DNA from: an uncultured Leptospirales bacterium
Lineage (GTDB): Bacteria; Spirochaetota; UBA4802; JAFGDQ01
Reading direction: 5' to 3'
NCBI GenBank assembly: GCA_964626055.1
Contig: CAZVDF010000010.1
Location: 5,243-69,242, forward strand
Length of the DNA: 64,000 nt
Shown: piece by piece, positions 5,137 to 23,147 of the stretch
Layout: the number at the start of each line of letters is the position of its first letter
Numbering within the stretch: the first letter of the stretch is position 1
Notes under the pieces: model-generated
Seen by the model: the letters and a program-made list of their open reading frames with translations, nothing else
Databases searched by the model: none
What the model was told of the DNA's origin: nothing
Translations under genes and position numbers: made by a program

Positions 5137-5210
5137 CCATTTTTAAATTATTCAGTAAAGTTAGGGAAAGCGAATAAATATGGAAAATGTAGCTGTTATA
5201 TTTGGCTTAT

Positions 5211-5242
5211 CCCCCTATCCCCCGGAGGGGGCACCGGTTTGG
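5211..5242 (+). repeat. family C hairpin, short form
   Basis: CCCCCTATCCCCCGGAGGGGGCACCGGTTTGG. Confidence 0.75.
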
Positions 5243-5421
5243 AAAGTGCCATACTTTTAATATGCTTTAAAAAAATTTCCGGTCATCTACCCTCTGGCGA
5301 AGTTACGAATTGAAAGGGAGTAATTTAGGAAAACAGATCAGAAACAGCAGGCAAGACCAGTTATAAATGAAGAATAAACGATTAACTTTAATGCTTTAAT
5401 TAATACAATAATTTTGCTGAT

Positions 5422-5448
5422 GGTGCCCCCTCCGGGAGATAGGGGGGT
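5422..5448 (-). repeat. family C hairpin, short form
   Basis: Reverse complement reads CCCCCCTATCTCCCGGAGGGGGCACC. Confidence 0.7.
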
Positions 5449-5503
5449 GGGATGATTGCATTATTATAACAGCATTAATTCTTTTATCTCAAGGACAAAT
5501 AAC

Positions 5504-6475: not shown

Positions 6476-6516
6476 AAAATTTTTAAACATAGCGCAAATA
6501 GATGTAAAATTATTAG

Positions 6517-6636
6517 ACTTAAGTTATGATTTGATAATATCTATGGAGCAGGCGACAGGGATGTCGCCGGAACGGCGTAAAACAGGATGTTTTTTACGCG
6601 GTTCCGAAATAGATATTATCAAGTCATAACTTAAGT
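6517..6636. repeat. singleton 120-bp palindromic element between hemB and hemL
   Basis: 28-nt arms ACTTAAGTTATGATTTGATAATATCTAT / ATAGATATTATCAAGTCATAACTTAAGT (one mismatch). They enclose GC-rich sub-hairpins GGCGACAGGGATGTCGCC and CGGAACGGCGTAAAA...TTTTACGCGGTTCCG. Confidence 0.8.
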
Positions 6637-6683
6637 GAATTTTCCGAAGAAATAAGTATTAAGACTATATTTAAATAAAGAAC

Positions 6684-7979: not shown

Positions 7980-8113
7980 CCCGGCCACAGCTAATTAGTC
8001 ACATATTTTCACTGATTTTACAAGCGTACGTCCCAAAACTTCTGTAACAACTTTAGAAAATAATTCAGCTATAATCATCTGGAAAGGGACAAGTCAATAT
8101 AATGAGTTTACTT

Positions 8114-8315
8114 GAAGCCATCCCATAATTAAAGATTCAAATAAGTGATTAACGATAAATAAGGATACACTAAAAAATTTTCTGCGGAATCAGACCTTCC
8201 TGGTAAGTATTCCATGCTTTTAAACGCTTTTGCATCAGGTCTGAAAGGCGTCCTCAAAAATTTTCTAGTGTATCCTTATTTATCAGTAAATAAAATATAA
8301 TTTTGAGATGGCTTC
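8114..8315 (+). repeat. family A nested-palindrome element, copy 1 (inner hairpin 8154..8284)
   Basis: Outer termini GAAGCCATCCCATAATT / AATTTTGAGATGGCTTC. Inner stem GATAAATAAGGATACACTA.../...TAGTGTATCCTTATTTATC. Conserved core CTGCGGAATCAGACCTTCCTGGT...GCATCAGGTCTGAAAGGCGTCCTCA. Confidence 0.85.
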
Positions 8316-8509
8316 TATATATTTGCCAATATCCCGAGAGCGCCGTGCAGGATACCGGTAATTAAAAGAGTGATCCCTGTTTTTTTATGTACTCCAATTT
8401 TAACCTGTATGATCCTCATACCGGAAAGGAACTGGAATATTAAAAGAAATAAATTGATTATTCCAAGTATCATAATTATTGATATTCCGAATATAGACAT
8501 GGTGAACAT
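8315..8509 (-). CDS. 64-aa two-TM membrane protein with His-x13-His on TM2
   Basis: AAGGAG RBS. Lies 17 nt downstream of the SOR-like gene on the same strand. Two hydrophobic helices, with H41 and H55. Confidence 0.55.
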   Translation of the reverse strand: MFTMSIFGISIIMILGIINLFLLIFQFLSGMRIIQVKIGVHKKTGITLLITGILHGALGILANI

Positions 8510-8526
8510 AAACTACTCCTTGAATG

Positions 8527-8907
8527 TTATTGTATCTCTATTTTCTTTTCGACTTTCCCCGTGCTTCCATGCAGGTTGCAGTTGCCCTCAGCTTCAATGA
8601 CGAGCTGGCCGCTGACTTCGGCTTTATAGCTTACCTCGCGTGTAAAATTTTCGTTTTCCGGCAGTTTCCCTGCGGAAAATTCCCAGCGGCCGATTTCCTT
8701 GCCATTGACCTTAACGTAGATCCAGTCCGTATGATGAATAAAATTATTCCCGCTGTGAGTTACATTAATCTTTATTTTTATTTCCGATCCTTTAGCGGCT
8801 TTATCCGGGGCGTCTATTATCACTGAAGTTTTATTGGCGAATAACGGCGAAGCTATTAAAAAAACGGAAATTATTATTGTAAAAAAAAGTCCATATTTAT
8901 TCAGCAT
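8527..8907 (-). CDS. exported superoxide-reductase-like (desulfoferrodoxin Fe-binding domain-like) protein
   Basis: GGAGG RBS 8 nt upstream. Sec-type signal MLNKYGLFFTIIISVFLIASPLFA. Motifs THSGNNFIHHTDWIYV and GNCNLHG resemble SOR centre ligand motifs. Confidence 0.6.
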   Translation of the reverse strand: MLNKYGLFFTIIISVFLIASPLFANKTSVIIDAPDKAAKGSEIKIKINVTHSGNNFIHHTDWIYVKVNGKEIGRWEFSAGKLPENENFTREVSYKAEVSGQLVIEAEGNCNLHGSTGKVEKKIEIQ

Positions 8908-8945
8908 GAATATTTCCTCCTGGAAAAATTAATATTAAATTATTA

Positions 8946-9236
8946 GAAGTCATCTCAAAATTATATTTCAATAGAAGACTTTAGTCAAGACTGATTTTTC
9001 AACGGCTTATCTCAGAAATAAGTACGACCCGATTAAAAAATATTATTTTATATGGACTATTTATGAAAAATCGAAATACATTACTAAATTTACTCCGGAA
9101 TCAGGCCTTCCTGGTTCATTTTTCTTATTTCAGAATGCTATTGCATCAGGCCCGAAAGGCGTCCTCATAAATTTAGTAATGTATTTCGATTTTTCAAACT
9201 ATAAAACCTAATTTTGAAATTACTTCTAATGTTTTC
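8946..9236 (+). repeat. family A element, copy 2 (inner hairpin 9065..9205; long left spacer)
   Basis: Outer termini GAAGTCATCTCAAAATT / AATTTTGAAATTACTTC. Inner stem GAAAAATCGAAATACATTACTAAATTTA and its complement. Subfamily-2 core (CTCCGGAATCAGGCC...CAGGCCCGAAAGGCGTCCTCAT). Confidence 0.8.
8960..8988 (-). promoter_or_regulatory. putative sigma70-type promoter of the SOR-like cassette
   Basis: On the minus strand, TTGACT (8988-8983), 17 nt, TATAAT (8965-8960). The -10 lies within the left outer terminus of family A copy 2. Confidence 0.55.
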
Positions 9237-9264
9237 TAAAAAATCAATATTTAAAAGAATATTT

Positions 9265-10749
9265 TTAAATATCCAGCTCCTTAAAAAATTCGGTGAAAAG
9301 ACGCACGCCGAAACCCGTAGCGTATTTCGGCCTGTATCCCCTTGCCTTTGAATTCCATGCCGTGCTCGCGATATCGATGTGAGCCCAGGGAACATCCTTG
9401 ACGAATTTTTTAATAAACGTTGCCCCTACAATCGTACCCGCGTTCCTGCCCTGGCCGACGTTCTTAACGTCCGCGATGTCGGATTTGATCAGATCTTCGT
9501 ACTCTTTATAAAGCGGCATGCGCCATATTCTCTCGCCGGTATCTTCGCCAGCTTTAAAAAGAGCTCCCGCGAGTTTATCGTCATTCGAGAGAAGCGCCGC
9601 AACCAGTTCGCCGAAGCAGACAAGGCACGCGCCCGTGAGCGTGGCGATGTCTATTATGGCGGACGGCTTCACGGTCTTTTCCGTGAAAGCAACGGCATCC
9701 GCGAGTATCAGCCTGCCCTCCGCATCGGTATTCCCGATCTCCACATTCCGTCCGTTATAGGCAGTAAAGACATCCCCTGCCCTGTATGCCGTATTTCCTA
9801 TCATGTTTTCGCATAACGGCATGACAGCCACAATATTCCTTCTTAGCTTTAACTCGGCCGCTGTCTTCAAAGCGTACATACAGGCCGCCGCGCCGGCCAT
9901 ATCGCTCCTCATATCCTCGATTGAGGAGGATGGCTTAAGATTCATGCCTCCGGAATCGAATGTAATTCCCTTGCCTATAATTGCGATCTGCTTATTGCTT
10001 CCCGGATTTCCGCTGTACTTCAGCACAACCAGTTGAGGGGGGTACTTGCTGCCTTTGCTTACTGCCAGGAATAACCCCATTTTAAATCTTCCAACATCTT
10101 TCTTACCGTAAACCCTGCATGTAACTCCTTTTAACGCGGAGAGGCTTTTTGCTTTTGCGGCAATTGCCACAGGGTTCGAGATTTCGCTGGATTCATTGAT
10201 AAGATCTCGGCAGAGAACCGTGTTCGCGCTTATAATTTCCGTCTCTTTTAAAATTTTTTCTATTCTGCCGGAATCCCTGCACAGGAAATACGCTTCTTTT
10301 GTCTTTTTTAAAGACTCGTCATCTTCTTCGTTAGGGGATTTGTATTTGTCGAAAACGTAATCCGAAAGCAGCAGACCTTCGGCAATAGCGGATGCTACGG
10401 GGATTTCACCGAGCTCTTTCAGCTCCGGCATAATAATATGAATACGTTCGATATTTTTGCTTTTACAGACCTTGACAACTGCGGCCGAATTCTCCCTTAA
10501 TGACTCTTTTGTAATTTTCGATCTTTTACCCATGCCGGCTAATATTATATTGGGAAATCCCTTAAAAGGAATGAACATTGTTTCCGAAGGCTTTCCCTTA
10601 AAAGACGAAATATCCGCTCTCTCTTTAATAAAGGACAGCTGGCCGGCAATTGCCTTATCGATTTCCTTTTTATATTCCTCAGTCAGGAATAATACAGCAA
10701 TATCGGTATTTTTAAAATTATATGCTCCGGATTTAACAACAAGTTTCAT
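9265..10749 (-). CDS. pepA: leucyl aminopeptidase (M17)
   Basis: 494 aa. NTDAEGRL motif (IGNTDAEGRLILADA) and M17 catalytic-domain pattern. Confidence 0.92.
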   Translation of the reverse strand: MKLVVKSGAYNFKNTDIAVLFLTEEYKKEIDKAIAGQLSFIKERADISSFKGKPSETMFIPFKGFPNIILAGMGKRSKITKESLRENSAAVVKVCKSKNIERIHIIMPELKELGEIPVASAIAEGLLLSDYVFDKYKSPNEEDDESLKKTKEAYFLCRDSGRIEKILKETEIISANTVLCRDLINESSEISNPVAIAAKAKSLSALKGVTCRVYGKKDVGRFKMGLFLAVSKGSKYPPQLVVLKYSGNPGSNKQIAIIGKGITFDSGGMNLKPSSSIEDMRSDMAGAAACMYALKTAAELKLRRNIVAVMPLCENMIGNTAYRAGDVFTAYNGRNVEIGNTDAEGRLILADAVAFTEKTVKPSAIIDIATLTGACLVCFGELVAALLSNDDKLAGALFKAGEDTGERIWRMPLYKEYEDLIKSDIADVKNVGQGRNAGTIVGATFIKKFVKDVPWAHIDIASTAWNSKARGYRPKYATGFGVRLFTEFFKELDI

Positions 10750-10859: not shown

Positions 10860-12992
10860 TTAATTTTTAACCACATCAAAATCGATTCTCATGGTCTCGT
10901 ACGATACTTCTTTCAGACGGACACGCAGCCTGTCGCCTATCCTGAATCTCCTTCCGAGCCTTCTGCCTGTTACGCTGTAATCGTCCTCTTTAACCAGGTA
11001 ATAATCGTCCGTGAGAAATCTGAGCGGTACCATGCCTTCTATTGGTTTGTCGATGAGTGATACAAAAAATCCAGCCTTTCCGATACCGCTTACGATTGCG
11101 TCAAATACGTCGCCGACTTTATCCTGCATATAGCGGCACGAGATTAGCTTAAAGAGATCGCGTTCAGCATTCTGGGCTATCCGCTCCATCTCCGAGCTCT
11201 GTTCGCCGATCAATTCAAGCTCTCCGGTCTCGTACGGAGCCGGGCTTTTATCGATCAGACTTTTAAGGCAGCGGTGAACCACCAGATCCGGGTATCTTCT
11301 TATCGGAGATGTAAAGTGAGTGTAGTCGGCGAATCCCAGACCGAAATGCCCGAGAGGATCCGCGCCGTAATATGCCTGCATGAAGGATTTCAGTATGAGA
11401 AAATTAACAACTTTCTCGTATTCCCTGCCCTTTACATTATCAATCACCTTTTGCAGGGCGAGCCCTATATTCTTTGTTTCTTTAAGCGTAATGCCGAGCG
11501 TCCTGAAAAAATTCTTCAGCGAAAGCAATTTTTCGTCGCTGATATTCTCATGCACTCTGTAAAGCGAAGGGATATTGTTTTCAGTGAGCGCTCTCGAAAC
11601 GGTTTCATTAGCGCTCAGCATGAATTCCTCTATTATCATATGGCTTCTGAGCCTTTCGGCAAACTCAATATCCTTCAGATCATCCCTGTCATATACGAGC
11701 TCATGATCCGGCAGATCCAGATCAACGCGCCCGCGCTTTAACCGGTTCTTTTTAAGCATGGAAGCCAGTTCGAACATTTGCCGCAGGACGCTCTGCGGAT
11801 CGCCGCATGTTGCATTTGTTCCGTCGTATTCGCCATCTATGGCTTTGTCTGCCGAAATATAGGTCATTCTTTTATCAACATTTATAATACCCCGATAGAA
11901 CCCGTGCCCGATATCATTGCCGTATTTATCAAATATAATTTCTGCCGACAGAGTGAGCCTGTCGACTCCTGCTTTTAAAGAACAAAGATCATTAGAGAGC
12001 ATTTCAGGGAGCATGGGAATAACCGAATTCCCCAGATAATAGCTCGTCCCTCTTTTAAAGGCCTCGCCGTCCAGCTCGCTTCCTTTTTTTACGAAGGACG
12101 AGACATCGGCAATGTGCACGTAAAGCGTAAAACCGTTCTCCGTCTTTTCAAGCGAGACCGCATCGTCAAAGTCTTTTGCCCTTTCGCCGTCTATTGTGAT
12201 CGTGAAAATATCCCTATAATTTTTTCTGCTCTGAATATCAGCGCGCATAATTTTATCAGCATGTTCAAGCTCGGCATATTCCTTATGAAGGCCGGGAAGA
12301 GAATGCTTGGCCATGATACGCCCGACATCGTATCTGTCAATTGAGGAAAAATATGTTACGACCTCACATAGCTGTTTGCCGGATATAAATTCATCAGTTA
12401 AGCGGACAATGGCAAATTCCGCGTCTGCTACGGCATTACTATTCCTGCCTTCAGCGAGCCCGGCGCAGGCATCCATTTCGCTGTAAACATCAACAAGTTT
12501 AAAATGAACATATCTGCTGTTTTTTTGCGTTACTTTTGCAAAGTATTCGTCTTTTTTGCGTTCCAGAATGCGCGTAATTTTTCCGAATAATTCCCCATCC
12601 GCATAATCAACGAATACCGCTTCAGCTTTATCGTTATTACGAGCTTTATTTAAATCCTCTTTCCCTATTAAGATATCATCTCCGTCATCGGTTTTGAGTA
12701 TAGCGCTTCCGGTTGTATTTAATATCACCCTGCCGGTTAATTTAAAACCGCGATTTCTATAATATTCTTTTCTCTTTTTATTAAGAAAACCGGCATAAGC
12801 CAGAGCCCTGAGTATATCGCCGGTTTTTGATAATGCTGCGTTTTCTCCGGACGCGTCTTTTTTCTTCTTTTTACCTGCATTTGATCTTTTTCCTTTTGCA
12901 GGAGAAAATAAATCCCTGGCTATCCGGTGCGCGCTGAACGGCGGGTCATTTTCATAAACGTACGATATTATTTTTTTTGAAGATATTGACAT
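10860..12992 (-). CDS. rnr: ribonuclease R
   Basis: RNB-domain pattern and C-terminal S1 domain. ORF extends to 13013, but ATG at 12992 is preceded by GAGGA. Confidence 0.9.
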   Translation of the reverse strand: MSISSKKIISYVYENDPPFSAHRIARDLFSPAKGKRSNAGKKKKKDASGENAALSKTGDILRALAYAGFLNKKRKEYYRNRGFKLTGRVILNTTGSAILKTDDGDDILIGKEDLNKARNNDKAEAVFVDYADGELFGKITRILERKKDEYFAKVTQKNSRYVHFKLVDVYSEMDACAGLAEGRNSNAVADAEFAIVRLTDEFISGKQLCEVVTYFSSIDRYDVGRIMAKHSLPGLHKEYAELEHADKIMRADIQSRKNYRDIFTITIDGERAKDFDDAVSLEKTENGFTLYVHIADVSSFVKKGSELDGEAFKRGTSYYLGNSVIPMLPEMLSNDLCSLKAGVDRLTLSAEIIFDKYGNDIGHGFYRGIINVDKRMTYISADKAIDGEYDGTNATCGDPQSVLRQMFELASMLKKNRLKRGRVDLDLPDHELVYDRDDLKDIEFAERLRSHMIIEEFMLSANETVSRALTENNIPSLYRVHENISDEKLLSLKNFFRTLGITLKETKNIGLALQKVIDNVKGREYEKVVNFLILKSFMQAYYGADPLGHFGLGFADYTHFTSPIRRYPDLVVHRCLKSLIDKSPAPYETGELELIGEQSSEMERIAQNAERDLFKLISCRYMQDKVGDVFDAIVSGIGKAGFFVSLIDKPIEGMVPLRFLTDDYYLVKEDDYSVTGRRLGRRFRIGDRLRVRLKEVSYETMRIDFDVVKN

Positions 12993-13279
12993 TTTTCCTC
13001 TAAGAAACCGCATACTTCTAATAATTTTAAAAATTATCTTAAAACCGGTTTTTATTTAATATCCGGTGCTCCAGAAACTTAGAGCAACTATCTTGGTAAA
13101 TAAACATTGCAAATTAGTCATCCTTATTTTTTAATATTATAAAAATATTTAAATATTTAGTTTATCACATCCAATGATTTTCTTGACAGAAAATAAATCA
13201 GCCTTTTTATTAAGGCATAGCAATGCTGATTTTCGATTGCCGGTTTTTTATTTAAAATATTTTTTTATCCGCGGGATAT

Positions 13280-14011
13280 ATGCCTAAAAAAATATTACGG
13301 ATATTATATAAATTTTACGAATGGTTTATTTTTGTACCCCTTCTCGGATTATCCACGCTTATATTCGGGACCTCAGCGGCAATCCTGGCCATTATTGTAA
13401 ATCCGAATTTCGCCAGTCAGGTATGCGCGGTATCATGGGCACGCTTCATTTCATTTATAACTCCTGTGTTCGTAAAGGTAACGGGAAGAGAAAACCTGGA
13501 TAAAAATAAATCCTATATTATTGTTTCCAATCATCAGAGCCACTACGATATACTTACAGTTTACGGATGGCTTGGAGTCGATTTCAAATGGGTCATGAAA
13601 AAAGAACTGAGGAAAATACCGGCGCTGGGAATAGCGTGCGAAAAGATCGGACATATATTTATCGACAGATCAAATCCGGGGGCTGCAGTAGAATCTTTAA
13701 AGGAAGCAAAAGCCAAATTAACCGCCGGAACCTCGGTAATGTTCTTCCCCGAAGGGACAAGAAGCAAGGACGGTAAAATTGGACAATTTAAGAAAGGAGC
13801 GTTCAGAATGGCAGCCGATCTTGATTTGCCGCTTCTTCCTGTAACGATAAAAGGCACAAGAGAGATATTGCCGGCGGGAACATATAATCTATTTCCGGGG
13901 AAAGCGGAATTGATCATTCATAAACCTATCGAACCGTCAAATTACGGCAGCGCCGATATTGAAAATCTGATAGAAGAAACTAGACAGGCAATTATTTCGG
14001 GTATGGTATAA
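13280..14011 (+). CDS. plsC: 1-acyl-sn-glycerol-3-phosphate acyltransferase
   Basis: HX4D motif (NHQSHYD) and FPEGTRS motif. N-terminal TM helix. Confidence 0.85.
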   Translation: MPKKILRILYKFYEWFIFVPLLGLSTLIFGTSAAILAIIVNPNFASQVCAVSWARFISFITPVFVKVTGRENLDKNKSYIIVSNHQSHYDILTVYGWLGVDFKWVMKKELRKIPALGIACEKIGHIFIDRSNPGAAVESLKEAKAKLTAGTSVMFFPEGTRSKDGKIGQFKKGAFRMAADLDLPLLPVTIKGTREILPAGTYNLFPGKAELIIHKPIEPSNYGSADIENLIEETRQAIISGMV

Positions 14012-14146
14012 CGGATGGCCGGGCCTCAAAACCGCTGCGCAAAAAAAGCATGTTTTTTAATTGATTTATATTGATTATCCGGTATATTTATTGAATATGC
14101 CGTCTGCCGATCGGAAAATACATTTTAAAAATATCCGAGGACTATC

Positions 14147-16030
14147 ATGAAAGATTCTCTTTCCAGCTGGATTAAGATTTATCCGGAAAAATTCGTACCG
14201 GAAGAGGAGATTTTCCGTCACATTGGAAGAGGCTTTAAAATATTCATCAGCACTGGATGCGGCGAACCTGTCTACCTCGTAAGAGCGCTTGTCAGATATG
14301 TCGAGGAGCACCCCAAAGCCTTTGCCGATGCGGAAATTTTCCAGGTATGGACTCTCGGCATAGCAGTCTATACCGAAGAAAAATTCAATTATAATTTCAG
14401 GCACAACTCATTCTTTATAAGCGACAAATCAAGAGAATCTATCAATACGGGACTTGCCGATTATACGCCGATATTCCTCTCCCGCGTGCCCGATCTGCTG
14501 CGCAGAAAATACATCAAGTTCGACGCGGCACTTATACAGACATCCCTGCCCGACAGGAACGGGAACGTGAGTCTCGGCATAAGCGTCGATATCTGCAAAG
14601 CCGCAATAGAGAACGCAAGCCTTGTTATCGCCCAGATGAACCCCAGTATGCCGCGCGTGCACGGGGACACATTTATAAATATTAAAAATATTAATTATCT
14701 GATTCATCATGAAGAAAAGCTGCTTGAATATATGCCTACGGTTCCCAGCGAGATCGCGCAGCAGACGGGGAAATACGTCTCCAAGATAGTAAACGACGGC
14801 GATACGATACAGATAGGTTACGGGAGCCTGCCGAACGCCATATTGCAGAATCTTAAAGATAAAAAAGACCTCGGCATTCACTCCGAGCTTCTGACCGACG
14901 CTGTCGTTGAGCTTATTAGGCTTGGCGTCATCAATAACTCGAAAAAAACCATAGATCGCGGTAAAACGGTGGCTTCATTTTGCATGGCTACCGAACAAAC
15001 CTACAGATATATAGACGATAATCCCGAAATGGACTTCAGGACAATCGATTATACGAATGATCCGCTGGTGATTTCCCGCATTCACAACATGGTTGCGATC
15101 AATTCCGCGCTTGAGATAGATCTCACAGGGCAGGCAAGCGTTGAATCCATAAACGGCAAATTTTACAGCGGCATAGGAGGCAACGCCGATTTCATGCGCG
15201 GCGCAATACTCGCTCCCGGCGGGAAGACAATACTCGCAATAGAATCGACAGCCAGAAACGGACAGATTTCGCGCATCGTGCCTTCTCTTCAAAACGGCAC
15301 AGGCGTAACGCTTAACAGGGGCGACATATTTTATGTAGTGACGGAATACGGCATTGCATATCTCCACGGTAAAAACATACGCGAGCGCGCAATGGACCTG
15401 ATCGCCATCGCTCATCCGAAATTCAGAAGCCGGCTCATAGAAGAAGCGAAAAAATTGAACATCATTTACAAAGACCAGGCATATATTTCAGGCAAGAACG
15501 CCGAGTATCCGGAATATCTTGAAGAATACAGGACAATGAGAAGCGGCCTTATACTGTGGTTCAGGCCCGTCCGCATCAACGATGAAAGCCTGGTCAAGGA
15601 TTTCTTTTATTCACTCTCCGACCAGAGCCTTCAAAGACGATTCATGTCATTCAGGATAGACGTGCCTCATAAAGTAAGGCAGGAGTTCGTAGTAATCGAT
15701 TACACAAAAGAGCTGATCATACTTGCAACGACCATGCTTGAGCAAAAGGAACTCGTTGTGGGCATAGGCCAGATATCCAAGAACGAAAACACACTCTTTG
15801 CTGAAGTCGCCTTCGCCGTCAGGGACAACTATCAAAATCAGGGTATCGGATCAGAGCTCCTGGAGTACCTGACTATCATTGCAAAAAAAGAAGGTTTGCA
15901 TGGATTTACCGCTGAAGTACTGATGGAAAACCAGCCCATGCTCCATGTATTTGAAAAAATGGGCTTTAATATTCACCGGAAGCTCGAAGAAGGCGCTTAT
16001 AAGCTTATAATGAGATTTAATATTAATTAG
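14147..16030 (+). CDS. acetyl-CoA hydrolase/transferase-family domain fused to a C-terminal Pat-type GNAT acetyltransferase domain
   Basis: 627 aa. The N-terminal ~460 aa are CoA-transferase-like. The C-terminal ~155 aa (from about 15554) carry GNAT motif A, QNQGIGSELLEYL, in a Pat-like context. Confidence 0.8.
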   Translation: MKDSLSSWIKIYPEKFVPEEEIFRHIGRGFKIFISTGCGEPVYLVRALVRYVEEHPKAFADAEIFQVWTLGIAVYTEEKFNYNFRHNSFFISDKSRESINTGLADYTPIFLSRVPDLLRRKYIKFDAALIQTSLPDRNGNVSLGISVDICKAAIENASLVIAQMNPSMPRVHGDTFINIKNINYLIHHEEKLLEYMPTVPSEIAQQTGKYVSKIVNDGDTIQIGYGSLPNAILQNLKDKKDLGIHSELLTDAVVELIRLGVINNSKKTIDRGKTVASFCMATEQTYRYIDDNPEMDFRTIDYTNDPLVISRIHNMVAINSALEIDLTGQASVESINGKFYSGIGGNADFMRGAILAPGGKTILAIESTARNGQISRIVPSLQNGTGVTLNRGDIFYVVTEYGIAYLHGKNIRERAMDLIAIAHPKFRSRLIEEAKKLNIIYKDQAYISGKNAEYPEYLEEYRTMRSGLILWFRPVRINDESLVKDFFYSLSDQSLQRRFMSFRIDVPHKVRQEFVVIDYTKELIILATTMLEQKELVVGIGQISKNENTLFAEVAFAVRDNYQNQGIGSELLEYLTIIAKKEGLHGFTAEVLMENQPMLHVFEKMGFNIHRKLEEGAYKLIMRFNIN

Positions 16031-16048
16031 AAGCCATCTTAAAATTAT
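16030..16048 (+). repeat. solo family A left terminus
   Basis: GAAGCCATCTTAAAATTAT directly abuts the stop codon of the CoA-transferase/GNAT gene. No inner hairpin follows. Confidence 0.45.
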
Positions 16049-16198
16049 TTTTTTTATTTTCTTAATATTGACCTTAACAGTAATTTTTTTTAAAAATCCT
16101 TATTGCTTTTTTATAGACCATTTAAAAATATTGATTAATCCGGTCGCTACGAATATAATTATTTGTGGCGGGCATAAATCAGGCTACCGGAGAGTGAA

Positions 16199-18322
16199 AT
16201 GGGAATTAAAAATAAATATAACATAAAAAGTCTTTTCGAACCGGAAAGCATCGCGGTAATAGGCGCGTCGCAGGATAAACAGAAGATCGGCTATACCGTA
16301 TTCAACAACATAATCTCAGGCGGATACAAAGGCAGGGTTTTCCCCGTAAGCCCCAGAGGCGGCGAGATCGACGGCCATAAAGTTTTTAAGGATATAAGGG
16401 ATATTGAAGCACCTGTAGACTGCGCCTCTATAGTCATACCCGCAAAACTCGTAAAAGACGCGGTAACAAGCTGCGCCCTGAAAAAAGTCAAATTCATACA
16501 AATTATTACGTCAGGATTCTCGGAAATCGGGAACGTAAAAGAAGAAAAAGAAATTACCGCTATAGCAAGGGAGGCCGGGACGCGGATAGTGGGACCAAAC
16601 ATGTTCGGCCTTTACTCCAGAGCCGCCTCCCTCAACTCTACTTTTTCAGCTACCAGGATAAATCCGGGCAATGTTGCCATACTCACTCAGAGCGGGGCTC
16701 TCGGCATCGCGATGATAGGCAAAACTGCGGTCGCGAACATGGGACTTTCCGCGATCATATCAATCGGCAATAAATGCGATGTTGACGACGCCGATCTTTT
16801 GGAATACCTGATCGGAAACGAAGAAACAAAAGTGATTCTCATGTATATAGAGGGAGTTAAGAACGGCGAAAGGCTCATAGAGATCCTGAAGATGGCAACA
16901 GGGAAAAAGCCGGTAGTGGTAATTAAATCCGGCAAATCAAAGAGGGGTGCGCAGGCCGCCGCATCGCATACCGGATCGCTTGCCGGTTCCGATGCTATAT
17001 TCGACGCCGTCATGAAACAATGCGGAGTTCTCAGGGCGGAAGGCCTTGAAGAAGCTTTTAACTGGTGCAAGTTCCTGGCGTCAAGCCCGGCTCCGAAGAA
17101 CTTCCAGAGCGTAATAGTGACCAACGGCGGAGGTATCGGCGTAATGGCAACAGACGCATGCGAGAGATCAGGCGTTGCCCTATACGACGATCAGGCTTCA
17201 TTAAAAGCTGCATATGAGACAGTAACTCCGTCTTTCGGATCGACTAAAAATCCCATCGATATCACCGGCGGAGCGAACGCTGAAGACTATACGGCCGCTC
17301 TTACCGTCACAGCGAAAAATAAAGATATCGGATCAACCATCGGCCTTTACTGTGAAACTGCGGTATTTAACTCCGAAAACCTGACTAAAATGCTGTCGGA
17401 AACTTACGCAAAACACAGGGAACAAGGCAAACCGATCGCTTACGCTCTGGTCGGCGGGAAGCAGGTTGAAAACGCGATAACCTCCCTCAGGACGGACAGT
17501 GTTCCCGTCTTTAACGATGTTGAACAGGCTGTTTCCTGCATAGGCGCGCAATATAAATATTACAAATACATCGATGAAATATCCGACAGGATTGACGACT
17601 ATGATGTCAATGTAAACTCGATAAATAACATAATAGATGCCGCATTAAAGGAGGGACGGACTTTTCTCCTGGCAAATGAAGGCGCGGCGGTTATGAGGGC
17701 CGCGAATATCCGCATGCCTGAAAGCCGGATCGCGCGAAATATAGATGAGGCCGTAAGGTTTGCGGAAGAGATCGGATATCCGGCAGTAATGAAAGTCGTA
17801 TCGAAAGACATAGTTCACAAGAGCGACGTCGGCGGAGTAATGCTGGACCTCGACAATCGGAAAGAGATCGTGGATGCATACGAAGCCATAATGTATAGCT
17901 GCAAGTCGTACAATCCTAACGCCGTGATCGAGGGCATAGAGGTTGCGGAGATGGTTAAAAAAGGCGTTGAACTGATTGTAGGCGCAAGGCGCGACCAGTC
18001 GTTCGGACCGGTTGTCATGTGCGGGCTCGGCGGCATTTATGTCGAAGTGATGAAGGATATCTCGTTCAGGGCGCTGCCGTTGAACCGTAATATCGCCCTT
18101 TCCATGCTTGAAGAAGTACGGTCATATCCTTTGCTGCTCGGCGCAAGAGGAGAAGAAAAGAAAGACATCGAAGCGGTTATTGACACTATAATTAAAATCG
18201 GTTCCATTATTAAAAAATGCGAAAGGATCACAGACATTGAGATAAATCCGGTTGTTGTATATAATATAAGCAGCGGGCTCACAGCCGTTGACGCGAGGAT
18301 ATTGATAAGCAGGCAGAAATAA
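16199..18322 (+). CDS. ADP-forming acetyl-CoA synthetase (fused alpha/beta; acetate--CoA ligase family)
   Basis: 707 aa. CoA-binding N-terminus, conserved phosphohistidine segment AASHTGSLAGSD, C-terminal ATP-grasp. Confidence 0.85.
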   Translation: MGIKNKYNIKSLFEPESIAVIGASQDKQKIGYTVFNNIISGGYKGRVFPVSPRGGEIDGHKVFKDIRDIEAPVDCASIVIPAKLVKDAVTSCALKKVKFIQIITSGFSEIGNVKEEKEITAIAREAGTRIVGPNMFGLYSRAASLNSTFSATRINPGNVAILTQSGALGIAMIGKTAVANMGLSAIISIGNKCDVDDADLLEYLIGNEETKVILMYIEGVKNGERLIEILKMATGKKPVVVIKSGKSKRGAQAAASHTGSLAGSDAIFDAVMKQCGVLRAEGLEEAFNWCKFLASSPAPKNFQSVIVTNGGGIGVMATDACERSGVALYDDQASLKAAYETVTPSFGSTKNPIDITGGANAEDYTAALTVTAKNKDIGSTIGLYCETAVFNSENLTKMLSETYAKHREQGKPIAYALVGGKQVENAITSLRTDSVPVFNDVEQAVSCIGAQYKYYKYIDEISDRIDDYDVNVNSINNIIDAALKEGRTFLLANEGAAVMRAANIRMPESRIARNIDEAVRFAEEIGYPAVMKVVSKDIVHKSDVGGVMLDLDNRKEIVDAYEAIMYSCKSYNPNAVIEGIEVAEMVKKGVELIVGARRDQSFGPVVMCGLGGIYVEVMKDISFRALPLNRNIALSMLEEVRSYPLLLGARGEEKKDIEAVIDTIIKIGSIIKKCERITDIEINPVVVYNISSGLTAVDARILISRQK

Positions 18323-18515
18323 CCGTCATGTCCGGATTTATAAATTCGTCAGTATTCGGCGGATCCGGAAAATTGCTCTGATACGCTGGAATGGTTTTTT
18401 AAACTACGGATAATTTAATCCGGGCAGTCAGAAAAAATAAATTTTAGCTTCTTTCGCCTTCTCACGGAATGTCGGGGGGAGGGAGTTAGGGTTAAGGCAT
18501 AAAAGGGGGAAACCA

Positions 18516-19583
18516 ATGAACAATATAGTAATTGCATCGATCAGGAAAAATGCCGGGAAAACCAGCATAATAGCAGGAATAATTTCTCATTTTAAGAATA
18601 TAAAATTCGCTTATGCCAAACCGCTGGGCGACAGGCTGATCTATCGCAGGAAAAAAAGCTGGGATTACGACGCAAGTCTGATGATCAATCTCCTGGGCCG
18701 GGAGGGAGAGCTTGAAAGCCGCTTTGAAAAGATCACTCTCGGTTTTGACCATTCCAAGCTCAGATATATGTACGACGAAGCCGGAATAAAAAAAGCTCTT
18801 TCCGACATGGTGACCGAAATCGGCGGGAGCAACGATGTGATGTTCCTCGAAAGCGGGAAAGACCTGGAATCCGGCTCGTATCTCAATCTTGACGCTTTAT
18901 CCATGGCAAAATACGTCAACGCCAGACTGGTCGTAATAGTAAGCGGGGACAGCGACTTTATACTGGACGATATTAAATTCATTGAAAAATATGTAAAAAT
19001 AAAAGATAATAATTTTGCAGGCGTGATCGTCAACAAAGTCAACGATCTGGATATTTTTGAAAACTCATATGCGCCCGCAATAAAAGAAATGGGTATCAAT
19101 ATAATCGGAGCAATACCGTATAAGGAACAGCTTACATATCTTACGGTTGGATACCTGGCGGAAAAACTACTGGCGCGCGTGCTGGCAGGCGAACAAAAAT
19201 TAAAAAATATAGTGAAAAATATAATAATAGGGGCCATGTCAACGGCCGATCCCAATAAAAATCCGCTGTACATCAGGCCGACACTTAACAGGGAAAATCA
19301 GCTCATGATAACAAGCGGGGACAGAAGCGACATGATTCTGGCTGCGCTTGAGCGCGACACTACAGGCATTATCCTTACAAACGACATTGTACCCCCGCAG
19401 CTTATCCTTGCCAGGGCAAAGGAGCGCGGCGTGCCTGTTCTGCTCGTACCCATGGATACATTCAAGGCTGTAAAAACAATCGACGATATAGAAGCGCTGC
19501 TTACAAAAGACGATCCCGAGAAGATCGCTCTGATATCCCAGATGATCGAGAAATACACCGGGATGAACGACATTTTAAAATAG
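18516..19583 (+). CDS. Pta-N-terminal-like protein (BioD/CobQ-like P-loop domain plus DRTGG domain), no phosphotransacetylase catalytic domain
   Basis: 355 aa. N-terminal IASIRKNAGKTSI. DRTGG-type segment ITSGDRSDMILAALERDTTGIILTN. RBS AAGGGGGA. Confidence 0.75.
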   Translation: MNNIVIASIRKNAGKTSIIAGIISHFKNIKFAYAKPLGDRLIYRRKKSWDYDASLMINLLGREGELESRFEKITLGFDHSKLRYMYDEAGIKKALSDMVTEIGGSNDVMFLESGKDLESGSYLNLDALSMAKYVNARLVVIVSGDSDFILDDIKFIEKYVKIKDNNFAGVIVNKVNDLDIFENSYAPAIKEMGINIIGAIPYKEQLTYLTVGYLAEKLLARVLAGEQKLKNIVKNIIIGAMSTADPNKNPLYIRPTLNRENQLMITSGDRSDMILAALERDTTGIILTNDIVPPQLILARAKERGVPVLLVPMDTFKAVKTIDDIEALLTKDDPEKIALISQMIEKYTGMNDILK

Positions 19584-19591
19584 CGAATGAA

Positions 19592-20248
19592 TTATATGGG
19601 ATAATTATCATCCCAGAAACCGTCTTTTATTTTAAGCGTCTCTTTTTCCCACGCTATAATCCCGGTTTTCGTAAGCCTTAAAAGCAGACGCGAGAACGTT
19701 TCCGGTATGGTTCCAACGGCGGAAGCAATATCCTTTTTCGGCAATGTAATTTTATAGCTGTATTTCTTCCCATAGTTACTTATAATAAACCTGAAAAATC
19801 TCTCTTCAACATCGTGAGAAGACAGGTAATGTATCTGCTCGGTGAGGAATCTTAGCTTTTCGAACATGGCTCTTAAAAAATTATTTCTCGATGCCGGTTT
19901 GTCCATCATCTTCCAGAAAGAGTCACAGCGTATTGCTATTATCCCGGACTGTTCCAGCGCGGCAGCGCTGGCGGGATATTGCTTTCTTCCGAATAGTACC
20001 GCTTCCGCAAAAAATTCTCCCGGATATATTATTTTTATCGTGCTCTCCTTGCCGTCATAGGACGATTTATAGACCCGCACTGTTCCTTTGACTAGTATAT
20101 AGAAATATTTTCCCTCAAATCCTTCATTGAATAGAATCTCTTTAGGATCCAGCGTTCTTTGAATCGCGTCCCTGGCAAGCTCGCCGAGAGCCTGTTCGTC
20201 AAGGTCTTTAAAGAGGTCCAGATTTTTCAGTACGCTATTTAATTCCAT
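19592..20248 (-). CDS. Crp/Fnr-family transcriptional regulator (HcpR-like by context)
   Basis: 218 aa. cNMP-binding-like fold and C-terminal HTH with an FNR-type E-x-x-S-R helix (PETFSRLL). No N-terminal Cys cluster. Divergent from hcp. Confidence 0.85.
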   Translation of the reverse strand: MELNSVLKNLDLFKDLDEQALGELARDAIQRTLDPKEILFNEGFEGKYFYILVKGTVRVYKSSYDGKESTIKIIYPGEFFAEAVLFGRKQYPASAAALEQSGIIAIRCDSFWKMMDKPASRNNFLRAMFEKLRFLTEQIHYLSSHDVEERFFRFIISNYGKKYSYKITLPKKDIASAVGTIPETFSRLLLRLTKTGIIAWEKETLKIKDGFWDDNYPI

Positions 20249-20280
20249 AATAGTCTATTAAGAGATTTTACTCATTTTGT

Positions 20281-20335
20281 CCAAACCGGCGCCCCCTTTG
20301 TCCCAAAGGGAGGCTCCGCACGGGGATAGGGGGCG
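20281..20335 (-). repeat. family C hairpin, long form
   Basis: Reverse complement reads CGCCCCCTATCCCCGTGCGGAGCCTCCCTTTGGGACAAAGGGGGCGCCGGTTTGG. Confidence 0.75.
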
Positions 20336-20425
20336 AGAACATTATAAGCATTTACATTCACTGTCTTTTTTGCTTTTCCCAGGTGTCCGGAATGCGCCAT
20401 ATTTTATATAATAAACGTTCTGTTT

Positions 20426-20439
20426 TTGACTTATGTCAA
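20426..20439. promoter_or_regulatory. Crp/Fnr-type palindrome TTGAC-N4-GTCAA upstream of hcp
   Basis: Perfect inverted repeat TTGACTTATGTCAA. Its centre is about 41-42 nt upstream of the TSS expected from the TATAAT at 20462-20467. Confidence 0.6.
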
Positions 20440-20461
20440 TGAGTATTTTTGCCGGCCGGAC

Positions 20462-20467
20462 TATAAT
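20462..20467 (+). promoter_or_regulatory. putative hcp -10 hexamer
   Basis: TATAAT, 65 nt upstream of the hcp ATG. No good -35, consistent with activator dependence. Confidence 0.45.
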
Positions 20468-20531
20468 ATATACATAAAGAAAATGTTTTAATCCGTTACG
20501 ATATAAAAAATTATTAACAAGGAGCAAGAAT

Positions 20532-22166
20532 ATGAGTATGTTCTGTTTTCAATGCCAGGAAACCGTAAAAAACGAAGGATGCACGATCCGCGGCGTATGC
20601 GGGAAATACGAAGAAACGTCAAATCTTCAGGACCTGCTTTTATTTGTGTGCAGAGGGATTTCCGTCTTTGCCGCAGAATCTGCCGGGACGGGAAAACCGG
20701 ATAAAAACGCCGGCCGCTTTATCGTTAAAGCGTTATTTTCCACAATAACGAATGCGAATTTCGACAACAATAGAATTGCCGCTTTGATTAAGGAAGGGCT
20801 TGCCATACGCGAAGACCTGGAAAAGAAAAGCGCGTTGACCGGCGGTCTTCACGAGTCTGCAACATGGTTTGGCGACAGTACCGAAGAATTCAATGAAAAG
20901 GCAAAAGAAGTCGGCATACTTGCCACAAAAGACCCGGATGCGCGGTCGCTCCGCTCGCTTCTGCTGTTCGGGCTAAAAGGAATAGGCGCTTATGCGGAAC
21001 ACGCGGCCGTACTCGGATATGAGGACGACGGCATTTACAGTTTTCTTATGGAAGCGCTCGAGAGCACGACGAGAGACCTCACGGTTGACGAAATGATAAA
21101 CTGGGTCATGAAAGCCGGCGAAGCGGCGGTGAAGACCATGGCGCTCCTGGATAAGGCCAACACCGGAACATACGGGAATCCCGAGATCACAAAAGTAAAC
21201 ATCGGGGTAAGGAACAATCCCGGCATTCTCGTATCCGGTCATGATCTTAAAGATCTTCACGAACTTCTTGAACAGACCCGGGGCAAAGGCGTGGATGTCT
21301 ACACCCATGGCGAAATGCTGCCCGCGAATTACTATCCGGCATTTAAAAAATACGGCAATTTCGCGGGAAATTACGGCGGATCGTGGTGGCATCAGGACAG
21401 GGAATTCGATACATTCAACGGGCCGGTACTGATGACGACCAACTGCATAATCCCCGTGAAGGATTCCTATAAAGACAGGATATTCACCACAGGAATGGCC
21501 GGATATCCGGGTGTGCGGCATATCGAGGATCGCGATGACGGCGGGAAGAAAGATTTTTCCGTAATAATAGATCTTGCTAAAAAGTGCAAACCTCCTGTCG
21601 AGCTCGAAAGCGGTGAGATTGTCGGAGGATTTGCACACGAGCAGGTTTTTAAACTGGCTGATAAAATCGTGGAGGCGGTAAAATCCGGAGCCGTTAAGCG
21701 TTTTGTTGTAATGGCAGGATGCGACGGAAGGCAAAAGTCCAGGAATTATTTTACGGAGGTTGCGGAACAACTGCCCAAAGATGCGGTCATACTTACAGCA
21801 GGCTGCGCAAAATACAGGTACAACAAGCTAAAGCTCGGCGATATCGGCGGCATACCCCGCGTTCTCGACGCCGGTCAGTGCAACGACTCGTATTCGCTTG
21901 CAGTCATTGCGCTCAAGCTGAAGGAAATCTTAGGGGCAAAGGACGTGAACGAACTTCCAATATCTTTTGATATCGGCTGGTACGAACAGAAAGCGGTAGC
22001 AGTGCTTCTTGCGCTTTTATCTCTCGGGTTTAAAGGGATCAGGCTTGGGCCGACAATGCCGGCATTCCTGTCGCCGGCCGTAGTCAAAGTACTGGTTGAA
22101 AACTTCGGAATTAAACAGACAGAGGATCCGGAGAAGGATATTGACGCGATGATGGCTGGCAAATAA
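20532..22166 (+). CDS. hcp: hybrid cluster protein (hydroxylamine/NO reductase), class I
   Basis: 544 aa. N-terminal C-x2-C-x8-C-x5-C spacing ([22 protein letters not shown]). Confidence 0.93.
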
Positions 22167-22186
22167 AATTTCCGGGGCAAGCCCCC
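22161..22186 (+). repeat. family B element, 5' fragment (H1 only) containing the hcp stop codon
   Basis: AAATAAAATTTCCGGGGCAAGCCCCC. The TAA of hcp (22164-22166) lies inside the AAATAAAATT terminus. Confidence 0.6.
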
Positions 22187-22236
22187 TGAAGCGAGCTTTA
22201 AGAACAGTAATTGAAGATAATCTAATAACATTAAGT

Positions 22237-22260
22237 TCCCCTTCAGGGGGTCTGGGGGCC
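22237..22260 (-). repeat. family C-like hairpin (divergent)
   Basis: Reverse complement reads GGCCCCCAGACCCCCTGAAGGGGA. Same CCCCC-N3-CCCCC-loop-GGGG layout. Confidence 0.5.
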
Positions 22261-22304
22261 GCAGGAAAGATATATATTTACAATTAGCAAAAGGAGGATT
22301 ATCG

Positions 22305-23147
22305 ATGAAACGAAAAATAATTAATATTGACGATACCAGATGCAACGGCTGCGGCCTTTGCATGCCCGACTGCCCGGAAGGCGCGCTTCAGCTTATCGAA
22401 GGCAAGGCCCGGCTGGTTAGCGACATTTTCTGCGACGGGCTCGGCGCGTGCATAGGCAGCTGCCCGCAGGGCGCAATTTCGGTGCTGGAACGCGAAGCGG
22501 AGCCCTATAGCGAAGCGCGCGTCGTCGAGAACATAGCCCGCCAGGGAGAGGCAGTACTGAAAGCTCATCTTGAACACTTGCTTCATCACGGAGAAACTGT
22601 TCTTTATAATGAAGCGATTGAATACCTGGAAAAAAATAATATTAAAATTCCGGAACATGCGGAACCGGCATCGGAATGCGGGCACGAATTCCACAGCTGC
22701 CCGGGCTCGGCTCCGAAAACTATAGCGAGAAATACGTCCTCCGGATCCGATCCCGCTCCTGTCCCGGGAGCGCAATCTGTATCCGAACTCCGGCAATGGC
22801 CCGTGCAACTGATGCTTCTCAATCCGCAGATGCAGTATTTCGATAATGCCGATCTTCTTATATCTGCGGATTGCGCGCCGTTCGCCTACGGAAATTTTCA
22901 CAGGGATTTTCTGCGGAATAAAGTCGTAATAATGTTCTGCCCGAAACTGGATCCCCACATAGACGAATATATTGAAAAGATGACGGCCATTTTCACTAAT
23001 CACAACATTAAGTCGATCACTATTGCGAAAATGGAAGTGCCGTGCTGCGGTGGAGTAAATTACGTCGTGGATCAGGCATTGCGGAGATCCGGCAAGGACA
23101 TCCCGCTGAAAGATTACACTATCAGAATAAACGGAGAAGCCGGATAA
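22305..23147 (+). CDS. 4Fe-4S dicluster ferredoxin-domain protein with Cys-rich C-terminal extension (FrdX-like by position)
   Basis: CNGCGLCMPDCP and CDGLGACIGSCP motifs. Directly downstream of hcp. Confidence 0.75.
   Translation: MKRKIINIDDTRCNGCGLCMPDCPEGALQLIEGKARLVSDIFCDGLGACIGSCPQGAISVLEREAEPYSEARVVENIARQGEAVLKAHLEHLLHHGETVLYNEAIEYLEKNNIKIPEHAEPASECGHEFHSCPGSAPKTIARNTSSGSDPAPVPGAQSVSELRQWPVQLMLLNPQMQYFDNADLLISADCAPFAYGNFHRDFLRNKVVIMFCPKLDPHIDEYIEKMTAIFTNHNIKSITIAKMEVPCCGGVNYVVDQALRRSGKDIPLKDYTIRINGEAG

Follow-up and report, generated by a model that had tools for sequence, protein, structure and literature searches.

A CoA-transferase fused to a Pat-type acetyltransferase beside an ADP-forming acyl-CoA synthetase: a widespread, uncharacterised and probably regulatory module of anaerobic bacteria and archaea at the acetate/acetyl-CoA node

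In prokaryotes, the paradigm of metabolic control by acetylation is the modification of lysines in acyl-CoA synthetases, and all multi-domain lysine acetyltransferases (KATs) characterised to our knowledge carry a catalytically inactive sensor domain. What is to be made, then, of a locus in which a GNAT of the Pat subtype is joined to an apparently working CoA-transferase and encoded next to an ATP-yielding acyl-CoA synthetase? The locus lies in a stretch of 64,000 nucleotides of contig CAZVDF010000010.1 (assembly GCA_964626055.1), from an uncultured Leptospirales bacterium; the whole of this stretch is referred to as the window. A first-pass annotation, prepared from the letters of the DNA, had claimed three genes here on the + strand, and the three open reading frames are indeed found at these positions:

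14147..16030, + strand: gene 1, CoA-transferase–GNAT fusion, 627 aa (open reading frame; Pfam PF02550, PF13336 and PF00583)
16199..18322, + strand: gene 2, ADP-forming acyl-CoA synthetase (ACD) with fused alpha and beta parts, 707 aa (open reading frame; Pfam)
18516..19583, + strand: gene 3, stand-alone P-loop (AAA_26/BioD-like) and DRTGG protein, here called PtaN, 355 aa (open reading frame; Pfam and NCBIfam)

The fusion module is real and conserved: its architecture, the catalytic residues kept by each of the four catalytic or nucleotide-binding units, and the linkage of the genes across phyla are matters of observation. At least 120 full-length homologues of the fusion protein (64-91% identity) share an identical Pfam set, and a profile scan with one genome per species found relatives in at least 573 reference genomes, spread over many phyla of bacteria and archaea, the best 80 relatives all being full-length (61–82% identity). 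The bacterial hosts comprise Spirochaetota/Leptospirales, Desulfobacterota (Syntrophales, Desulfatiglans), Bipolaricaulota, Planctomycetota, Balneolales, Eisenbacteria, WOR-3, Actinomycetota and Aminicenantes; the archaeal hosts are Thermoplasmatota, Iainarchaeum and one contig labelled 'Halobacteria archaeon', to which the initial scan added an Altiarchaeales contig. Bacterial and archaeal copies are 61-65% identical, which points to strong constraint and, probably, to lateral transfer. An exhaustive search with the GNAT alone returned many divergent proteins of 585-663 aa with the GNAT at the equal C-terminal position, and the five that were sampled (615-643 aa) were CoA-transferase–GNAT fusions by Pfam in every case. 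Variants of about 960 aa (P0192, P0195) carry an N-terminal 4Fe-4S dicluster region before the CoA-transferase–GNAT core, which hints at a redox input in some lineages. The window copy is an ordinary, typical member of this family; an exact-sequence look-up of the window fusion protein returned no record. The architecture itself is already in the databases under generic names ('GNAT family N-acetyltransferase' or 'acyl-CoA hydrolase/GNAT'), and as a system it is uncharacterised: the module, widespread among anaerobic bacteria and archaea, probably controls the acetate/acetyl-CoA node in a manner not yet studied. A deltaproteobacterial contig (L060, 8001-13719) encodes three tandem fusion paralogues with no ACD or PtaN nearby; the second matches query residues 117-612 only, and the third is split in two matches and may be frameshifted.

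The fusion protein is organised as follows:

14177..15448, + strand: family I CoA-transferase domain, aa 11-434, of the 4-hydroxybutyrate/butyryl-CoA:acetate clade (Pfam and PDB matches)
14816-14824: G224-Y225-G226 loop
14885-14887: putative nucleophile E247
15170-15193: G342-x-G-G-x-x-D-F349 motif
15449..15553, + strand: conserved inter-domain linker, aa 435-469, including Y454-P455-E456..E459 ('YPxxLE')
15554..16027, + strand: Pat-type GNAT domain, aa 470-627 (Pfam, NCBIfam, PDB, PatZ alignment)
aa 488-508: gating-motif region of the GNAT
15803-15805: acidic catalytic residue E553
15833-15850: acetyl-CoA loop Q563-N-Q-G-I-G568

That the GNAT is fused to a domain of the acetyl-CoA hydrolase/transferase family, as first proposed, is borne out by Pfam, with AcetylCoA_hydro (PF02550) at aa 11-193 (5e-47) and AcetylCoA_hyd_C (PF13336) at aa 283-434 (1.9e-60), such that the two-domain alpha/beta architecture of family I CoA-transferases is present. 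Among solved structures, 3eh7 was matched over its full length (6e-113, residues 10-436), followed by 9vag, 2oas and 3gk7, and the structure of RipA (3qli) was matched at 3e-75. The nucleophile of RipA, Glu249, lies 22 residues past the G-V227-G gating loop (PMC3180442); as E247 sits 22 residues past G224-Y225-G226, this equal spacing assigns it as the putative nucleophile. In alignments of 14 and 24 fusion sequences from bacteria and archaea (members 61-79% identical to the window protein; mean column identity 75-76%), E247 and G344-G345..D348-F349 are invariant in both. E323 of the segment 'EIDLTGQ' was considered as the nucleophile and rejected, being Gln in most homologues while the RipA spacing indicates E247; the window protein and those most closely related to it do retain this residue (window 15113-15115), which is typical of 4-hydroxybutyrate CoA-transferases. 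A further segment of this half, 'NFRHNSFF', is a signature specific to the fusion family. With the nucleophile invariant and the match to true transferases extending over the full length, the CoA-transferase domain looks like a working enzyme and not merely an acyl-CoA sensor.

The sensor function was nevertheless the one envisaged in the first-pass annotation, according to which the CoA-transferase domain senses acyl-CoA and the GNAT acetylates the ACD or other acyl-CoA enzymes. Read strictly, the domain would do nothing but regulate, gating the GNAT as a functional counterpart of PatZ's dead ACD-like domain or of the sensor domains (cAMP, ACT and NADP) found in type III KATs. Precedent speaks for it, since the extra domain is a ligand sensor in every multi-domain bacterial KAT described (PMC8556138; PMC12184503), and the tight conservation of linker and GNAT is compatible with allosteric coupling. 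The sensor domains of the PatZ type, however, have lost the catalytic histidine (PMC8556138), and the regulatory domain of PatZ has a leucine (L244) at the phospho-His position, whereas in the fusion family E247, the G-x-G loop and the GxGG..DF motif show no variation in the alignments sampled from bacteria and archaea. Moreover, the whole domain matches true transferases at the E-value given above, and the mean column identity lies above the usual demand of ligand binding. A domain that senses and does nothing else is thus unlikely. Family I CoA-transferases form a covalent glutamyl-CoA intermediate, and the two readings overlap to the extent that an active transferase would also sense acyl-CoA through this intermediate.

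The C-terminal half was claimed to be a GNAT of the Pat type beginning at about 15554, and it scored as such throughout. Pfam detected Acetyltransf_1 (aa 525-607, 3e-13) and Acetyltransf_3 (aa 470-608), aa 470 corresponding to nucleotide 15554. The eight best matches of aa 445-627 among solved structures are Pat-family KATs exclusively, led by the PatZ-like KATs 9it0/9isq (2e-18) and including Streptomyces Pat (4nxy/4u5y), M. tuberculosis Rv0998 (4ava) and M. smegmatis Pat (4orf/4oll/4onu), and the best NCBIfam match is mycobacterial Pat (1.4e-23, compared with 1e-7 for RimI). An ungapped alignment with residues 710-878 of E. coli PatZ (28% identity, E 2e-24) spans the pre-GNAT 'YPxxLE' segment, which is located in the linker and corresponds to 'YPHQLEEW' (PatZ 710-717), the gating motif, which is V746-T763 in PatZ (PMC12184503), the catalytic E809 and the Q-x-x-G-x-G acetyl-CoA loop. 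E553 stands opposite E809, and every aligned homologue has E or D at this site; in the loop, G566 does not vary and position 568 holds G or A. By these comparisons the GNAT of the fusion is Pat-type. Invariant residues are further found in the linker (I440, Y441, D443, Q444, A445, G449, Y454, P455, E456, E459 and R462) and in the gating region (Y488, S491, R498, F499, R503, D505, P507 and H508). The latter set suggests a conserved macromolecular substrate, and the near-invariance of linker and gating region argues for an integrated two-domain machine that acts on a conserved protein.

In this context two further explanations have to be weighed. The protein may be primarily a CoA-transferase, whose GNAT serves as an allosteric or oligomerisation module that binds acetyl-CoA, or auto-acetylates the transferase, without activity in trans; the CoA-transferase part exceeds the GNAT in size and in score, structural GNATs do exist, such as the inactive GNAT of type V Eis-like proteins (PMC8556138), and with PtaN the module has a separate candidate for the regulator. 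Such an accessory role is quite unlikely, as E/D553, the Q-x-x-G-x-G/A loop and the near-invariant gating region are all kept, the nearest non-fused relatives of the GNAT are stand-alone GNATs of about 200 aa and the closest characterised ones are all trans-acting KATs, and the recurrent siting next to Acs, the classical Pat substrate, would be hard to account for. Alternatively, the GNAT might acylate an amine or amino acid with the acyl-CoA of the transferase, the fusion being a channelled two-step biosynthetic or detoxifying enzyme, for which the neighbouring ACD and PtaN would do no more than provide or recycle CoA esters. Small molecules are the substrates of most GNATs, the fusion of an acyl-CoA producer with an acyl-CoA consumer is a classic channelling design, and NCBIfam returned weak matches to RimI, ArsN1 and aminoglycoside acetyltransferases; these range from 1e-7 to 1e-2, however, as against 1e-23 for Pat (NCBIfam) and 2e-18 for PatZ, the match covers the Pat-specific 'YPxxLE' segment and the gating motif, and no conserved small-molecule pathway genes occur in the neighbourhood, all of which makes this the least probable of the explanations and a very unlikely one.

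The evidence thus returns to a transferase joined to a protein-lysine acetyltransferase, and the question becomes what the neighbouring genes contribute. In the ACD, the following residues are of interest:

16283-16285: K29, opposite R26 of PatZ
16967-16969: phospho-histidine H257 in SHTGSLAG
17816-17818: second histidine H540 in 'HKSD'

The description of gene 2 as a full-length, apparently competent ACD with the SHTGSLAG motif holds, the full set of Pfam subdomains being present (CoA_binding_2, Succ_CoA_lig, Ligase_CoA_2 and ATP-grasp_5). The best structural matches are the Nitrosopumilus 4-hydroxybutyrate-CoA ligase (8wzu, 2.9e-144) and the ACD of Ca. Korarchaeum (4xyl, 1e-107), with which the window protein shares the five subdomains, the fused alpha-beta order and both histidines; PatZ is matched more weakly (2e-73). 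H257 is kept in 54 of 54 and H540 in 53 of 54 ACDs linked to a fusion, and from both catalytic histidines gene 2 is predicted to be a competent ADP-forming acyl-CoA synthetase. A candidate acceptor for acetylation emerged at K29, which is Lys in all 54 fusion-linked ACDs and Asn or Ser in four unlinked ones, admittedly a tiny comparison set; the residue opposite, R26, is an acetyl-CoA contact of the PatZ regulatory domain. As the ACD of Archaeoglobus, which occurs without a fusion, also has Lys at this position by eye (GASPQEGKVG), K29 may track PtaN or the binding of CoA rather than the GNAT, and it is regarded as a lead only.

For PtaN, three elements were located:

18552-18566: Walker A motif, A13-G-K-T-S17
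19155-19484: DRTGG domain, aa 214-323
19311-19331: 'TSGDRSD'

The claim that the third gene encodes an N-terminal Pta homologue lacking the catalytic domain was likewise upheld: Pfam finds AAA_26 and DRTGG and nothing else, PTA_PTB is absent, and the protein covers only positions 3-365 of the 708-position Pta model NF004167. Among solved structures it has a single relative, the DRTGG domain of Archaeoglobus AF_1212 (2ioj, 2e-15). The Walker A sequence AGKTS, a KPxGDRLxYR motif and the TSGDRSD core are invariant in the PtaN family. E. coli Pta can be aligned with PtaN at residues 126-368 and not before residue 126, and at the position of the P-loop it reads GTSVGLTS. Because AGKTS is kept in PtaN, where E. 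coli Pta has VGLTS, PtaN looks nucleotide-binding in a way that the N-terminal domain of Pta may not be. We infer that PtaN is most likely a regulatory subunit of its ACD clade. In several spirochaete loci (L078, L083, L085 and L093) two tandem PtaN paralogues follow the ACD, those of L083 lying at 12215-13243 and 13576-14604.

Not only the fusion but also its neighbourhood is conserved beyond the source genome. Neighbourhoods were tallied by tblastn against contigs of metagenome-assembled genomes, with thresholds chosen by the authors, in two samples: 73 non-redundant loci anchored on the fusion, with at least 3.5 kb downstream each, and 64 loci anchored on PtaN with enough upstream sequence. 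In the former, the order fusion, ACD, PtaN was found in 50 of 73 loci, with gaps of mostly 8-40 bp, and fusion followed by PtaN in two of the 73; in the latter, an ACD lies immediately upstream of PtaN in 59 of 64 loci, and a fusion upstream of that ACD in 44. Permuted orders occur as well, namely ACD, PtaN, fusion in four Smithella loci, and fusion, PtaN, PlsC and then separate ACD alpha and beta genes in L019; the triad cluster is also carried by Thermoplasmatota archaea. A neighbourhood due to chance or hitch-hiking was ruled out, as the triad persists through three gene orders in bacteria and archaea, and the conservation strongly supports a functional module. On a 6.3 kb contig of Archaeoglobus without a fusion (L180), an ACD is followed 5 nt later by a 351-aa homologue of AF_1212; AF_1211 of this genus is a characterised ACD. 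Since the pair occurs in 59 of 64 loci and, without the fusion, in Archaeoglobus, the ACD-PtaN pair is the tighter and older core, with the fusion as a frequent third member.

Fusions that lack the ACD-PtaN pair are not devoid of related company. In about nine loci a gene for an AMP-forming Acs lies within 8 kb, with the domains ACAS_N, AMP-binding and AMP-binding_C and the C-terminal end ...PKTRSGKIMRR, which is the canonical Pat target site. When 117 non-redundant fusions were pooled, a sample in which the pair is enriched because 78 loci were anchored on PtaN, 83 had an ACD and/or PtaN nearby (one of them also an Acs), seven an AMP-forming Acs only, 13 neither, and 14 a flank too short to judge. 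All recurrent partners of the fusion convert an acid, acetate or another, to its CoA ester and back, and a textbook substrate of Pat is among them. Separate Acs-linked and ACD-linked clades were rejected, the Acs-linked fusions being interspersed in a rough, crude neighbour-joining ordering. For the mechanism suggested at the outset the outcome is mixed: the clause that the GNAT might acetylate 'other acyl-CoA enzymes' gains from the recurrent linkage to Acs, while the role of the CoA-transferase as a mere sensor is disfavoured by the invariant E247. Beside Acs, genes for an aldehyde:ferredoxin oxidoreductase and a sensor histidine kinase recur in Acs-linked or orphan loci (L011, L072, L077 and L090).

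Taken as one acetyl-CoA/acetate module, the three genes would provide a bifunctional transferase/KAT, a working ACD and a regulatory PtaN, an overall reading to which we give an even chance. The N-terminal part of the fusion would be a family I transferase moving CoA between a short-chain acyl-CoA and acetate, the presumed substrates, and the conserved linker would tie it rigidly to the protein-lysine acetyltransferase of the Pat type. The ACD would catalyse the reaction acyl-CoA + ADP + Pi <-> acid + ATP + CoA, so that transferase and ACD together might convert acyl-CoA into acetate and ATP, or run in reverse, with a logic like that of the acetate:succinate CoA-transferase/succinyl-CoA synthetase (ASCT/SCS) cycle. 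The GNAT could read the common pool of acetyl-CoA, which would be both donor and signal at or near the transferase site, and acetylate an acyl-CoA synthetase in order to throttle or direct flux; the presumed target would be the ACD in the window and the AMP-forming Acs where that gene is adjacent. Acetylation may in this manner set flux or prevent a futile cycle of ACD and Acs. PtaN would be a nucleotide- or metabolite-sensing subunit of the ACD, in parallel to the N-terminus of class II Pta and to AcuB. Acetylation of the neighbouring ACD by the GNAT is plausible and remains a prediction.

Several observations weigh against this reading. We know of no ACD that is subject to acetylation. In 21 of the 73 fusion-anchored loci ACD and PtaN are both non-adjacent, and 11 of the ACD-PtaN pairs in the PtaN-anchored sample have no match to the fusion in the 13 kb examined; the pair therefore does not require the fusion. 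The window genes are 168 and 193 bp apart, and with such gaps their co-transcription is not assured; the sequencing runs that hold the window sequence are DNA only, from a bioreactor and a freshwater metagenome, with none from transcripts. As to substrates, the CoA-transferase domain scores 263.9 bits against TIGR03948, the equivalog of butyryl-CoA:acetate CoA-transferase, far under the cut-off of 674.8 bits, and an assignment of its substrate was withheld for this reason. The ACD, too, falls below the cut-offs of the equivalogs for acetate--CoA ligase (ADP-forming), with 481 vs 567 bits for TIGR02717 and 512 vs 1200 for NF045494, and for 4-hydroxybutyrate--CoA ligase, with 563 vs 1300 for NF045493, on account of which its specificity for acetyl-CoA is an assumption. 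Finally, an AlphaFold2 (AF2) model of the fusion built on the 24-sequence alignment reached a pLDDT of 63.8 and a pTM of 0.48, only the GNAT part being confident, and was discarded as too poor to serve as evidence for domain packing or fold.

A stronger version of the module can be formulated as a split, still-catalytic Pat, in which the GNAT docks in trans on the active ACD as the GNAT of PatZ does on its dead ACD-like domain, with PtaN as a third subunit that senses nucleotides, such that CoA transfer, substrate-level phosphorylation and lysine acetylation would be coupled physically in one complex. It is an unlikely arrangement in our estimate; if true, it would constitute a sixth prokaryotic class of KAT, and acetylation would for the first time be seen to regulate an ADP-forming acyl-CoA synthetase. 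As GNAT followed by ACD is the domain order of type II enzymes, a split Pat of this kind might resemble an evolutionary precursor of the PatZ-type enzymes.

How does the triad compare with systems already described? KATs have been classified into types I-V, with ACD-like, cAMP, ACT and NADP sensor domains, GNAT-only forms and tandem GNATs (PMC8556138). Neither this classification nor the matching regulatory domains in a 2025 structural survey of PatZ (PMC12184503) includes a CoA-transferase type, and full-text literature searches found no description of a CoA-transferase–GNAT fusion or of an ACD-DRTGG complex, in agreement with the statement of the first-pass annotation that no characterised example of the fusion was known. 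The GNAT belongs to the same subfamily as those of PatZ/Pat (YfiQ) of E. coli and Salmonella (type I) and of Streptomyces PatA (type II). In common with PatZ, it is associated with a protein that has an NDP-forming acyl-CoA-synthetase fold and in some genomes with Acs, and the gene order GNAT then ACD mimics the domain order of SlPatA. In contrast to both, the fused partner is a CoA-transferase (PF02550 and PF13336) instead of a dead ACD-like domain; the protein of ACD fold forms a chain of its own and keeps the phospho-histidine H257, a third P-loop/DRTGG protein is included in the cluster, and the triad is known from its genes alone. The Bacillus acsA–acuABC cluster offers a functional analogy only, with a GNAT gene beside the acyl-CoA synthetase under control and a small nucleotide-sensing regulator. 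AcuA forms a stable complex with AcsA (PMC13039410; PMC8556138). The target of AcuA, however, is an AMP-forming Acs, and AcuB consists of CBS and ACT domains and acts on the deacetylase AcuC; unlike in acuABC, no deacetylase gene was seen in the cluster of the window.

For the individual partners, both Pfam domains, the spacing between Glu and G-x-G, and the GxGG..DF motif are common to the fusion, the 4-hydroxybutyrate CoA-transferase AbfT, butyryl-CoA:acetate CoA-transferase and Yersinia RipA, to which the fusion adds the C-terminal GNAT of about 190 aa and the 'NFRHNSFF' signature. As in Archaeoglobus, the ACD of the window is followed by a P-loop/DRTGG gene; unlike other ACDs, most of those in the clade of the window are preceded by the gene of the fusion. 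The AAA_26 and DRTGG architecture of PtaN is shared with the N-terminal region of class II Pta (E. coli, Salmonella), with AF_1212 and with DVU3031, and it is the stand-alone AF_1212/DVU3031 type that PtaN fits, with AAA_26 then DRTGG, about 350 aa and no further domain. In contrast to class II Pta it has no PTA_PTB domain, retains the Walker A lysine and has an ACD rather than Pta as its partner. The N-terminal region of class II Pta is said to be allosteric, reportedly from work by Campos-Bermudez et al. in 2010. DVU3031 of Desulfovibrio, a protein without the catalytic domain encoded beside pta-ack, was described as 'not involved' in lactate oxidation (PMC4481167). Nine ACDs are encoded by Syntrophus aciditrophicus, which makes ATP with an AMP-forming Acs (PMC4992975), and the choice of synthetase is therefore a live question in lineages that bear the module. 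Along these lines, the ASCT/SCS cycle, which PMC12817287 mentions, may be cited by way of analogy, as a family I CoA-transferase is likewise paired there with an NDP-forming acyl-CoA synthetase. In anaerobic eukaryotes acetate:succinate CoA-transferase and succinyl-CoA synthetase yield ATP from acyl-CoA in this cycle; its enzymes belong to other subfamilies, and the module of the window adds the acetyltransferase and the P-loop/DRTGG protein.

The fusion family is noteworthy in that it joins the Pat subtype of GNAT to an apparently working CoA-transferase, beside an ATP-yielding ACD, in hundreds of uncultured anaerobes (syntrophs, spirochaetes, Bipolaricaulota, Thermoplasmatota). These hosts exist close to the thermodynamic limit, and there the ATP yield is decided by the way in which acetyl-CoA is turned into acetate. 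If confirmed, the module would represent a new class of KAT and the first regulator of ADP-forming acyl-CoA synthetases, and it would give a function to the stand-alone P-loop/DRTGG proteins of the AF_1212 and DVU3031 type, which have been without one for two decades.

Turning to the surroundings of the triad in the window, the intergenic regions and the nearest upstream gene are:

16031..16198, + strand: spacer between fusion and ACD, 168 bp, AT-rich, with a sigma-70-like match TTGATT-17-TATAAT at 16131-16159
18323-18515: spacer between ACD and PtaN, 193 bp, AT-rich
13280..14011, + strand: PlsC-type acyltransferase directly upstream of the fusion (Pfam PF01553)

The length of the two spacers, compared with the short gaps of its relatives, is the sole peculiarity of the window copy. 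An Rfam scan of 13000-20600 gave no matches, and promoter-like and terminator-like matches around the triad showed no excess over the shuffled expectation, the sigma-70-like match in the spacer being a weak one. The flanks consist of housekeeping genes unrelated to the triad, with RNase R and the PlsC-type acyltransferase upstream and, at window 19592-23147 downstream, a divergent Crp/Fnr regulator, a hybrid-cluster protein (HCP, Prismane) and a ferredoxin-like gene. The closest synteny was found in Spirochaetes bacterium Zod_Metabat.878 (L102), a metagenome-assembled genome whose ACD (83% identity), PtaN (76%), Crp (74%), HCP (78%) and Fer4 (74%) genes correspond to those of the window, the downstream block of Crp/Fnr, HCP and ferredoxin-like genes lying at 6173-9612; upstream of its ACD no fusion was matched and unrelated open reading frames are found instead, one of them resembling Rhs/toxin-complex repeats by eye. 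Of the sampled words of the window sequence, 99% and 80% were recovered in bioreactor metagenome runs, and the sequence occurs in a freshwater metagenome as well.

In unrelated genomes, too, PlsC-like genes turn up repeatedly at a distance of a few kb or less from the fusion, on either strand (L016, 12353-13054; L019/L032, in L019 at 12004-12633; L097, 12617-13198). The PlsC-type gene may be loosely associated as a fourth member, or its presence may be coincidental; in either case it lies outside the core. Farther upstream, a tetrapyrrole block occupies window 1348-7979, with a HemD/uroporphyrinogen methylase fusion (1348-2835), ALAD (5456-6475) and a class III aminotransferase (6684-7979). 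Two very large open reading frames are located on the - strand, at 35644-39513 (1289 aa) and 39942-43874 (1310 aa).

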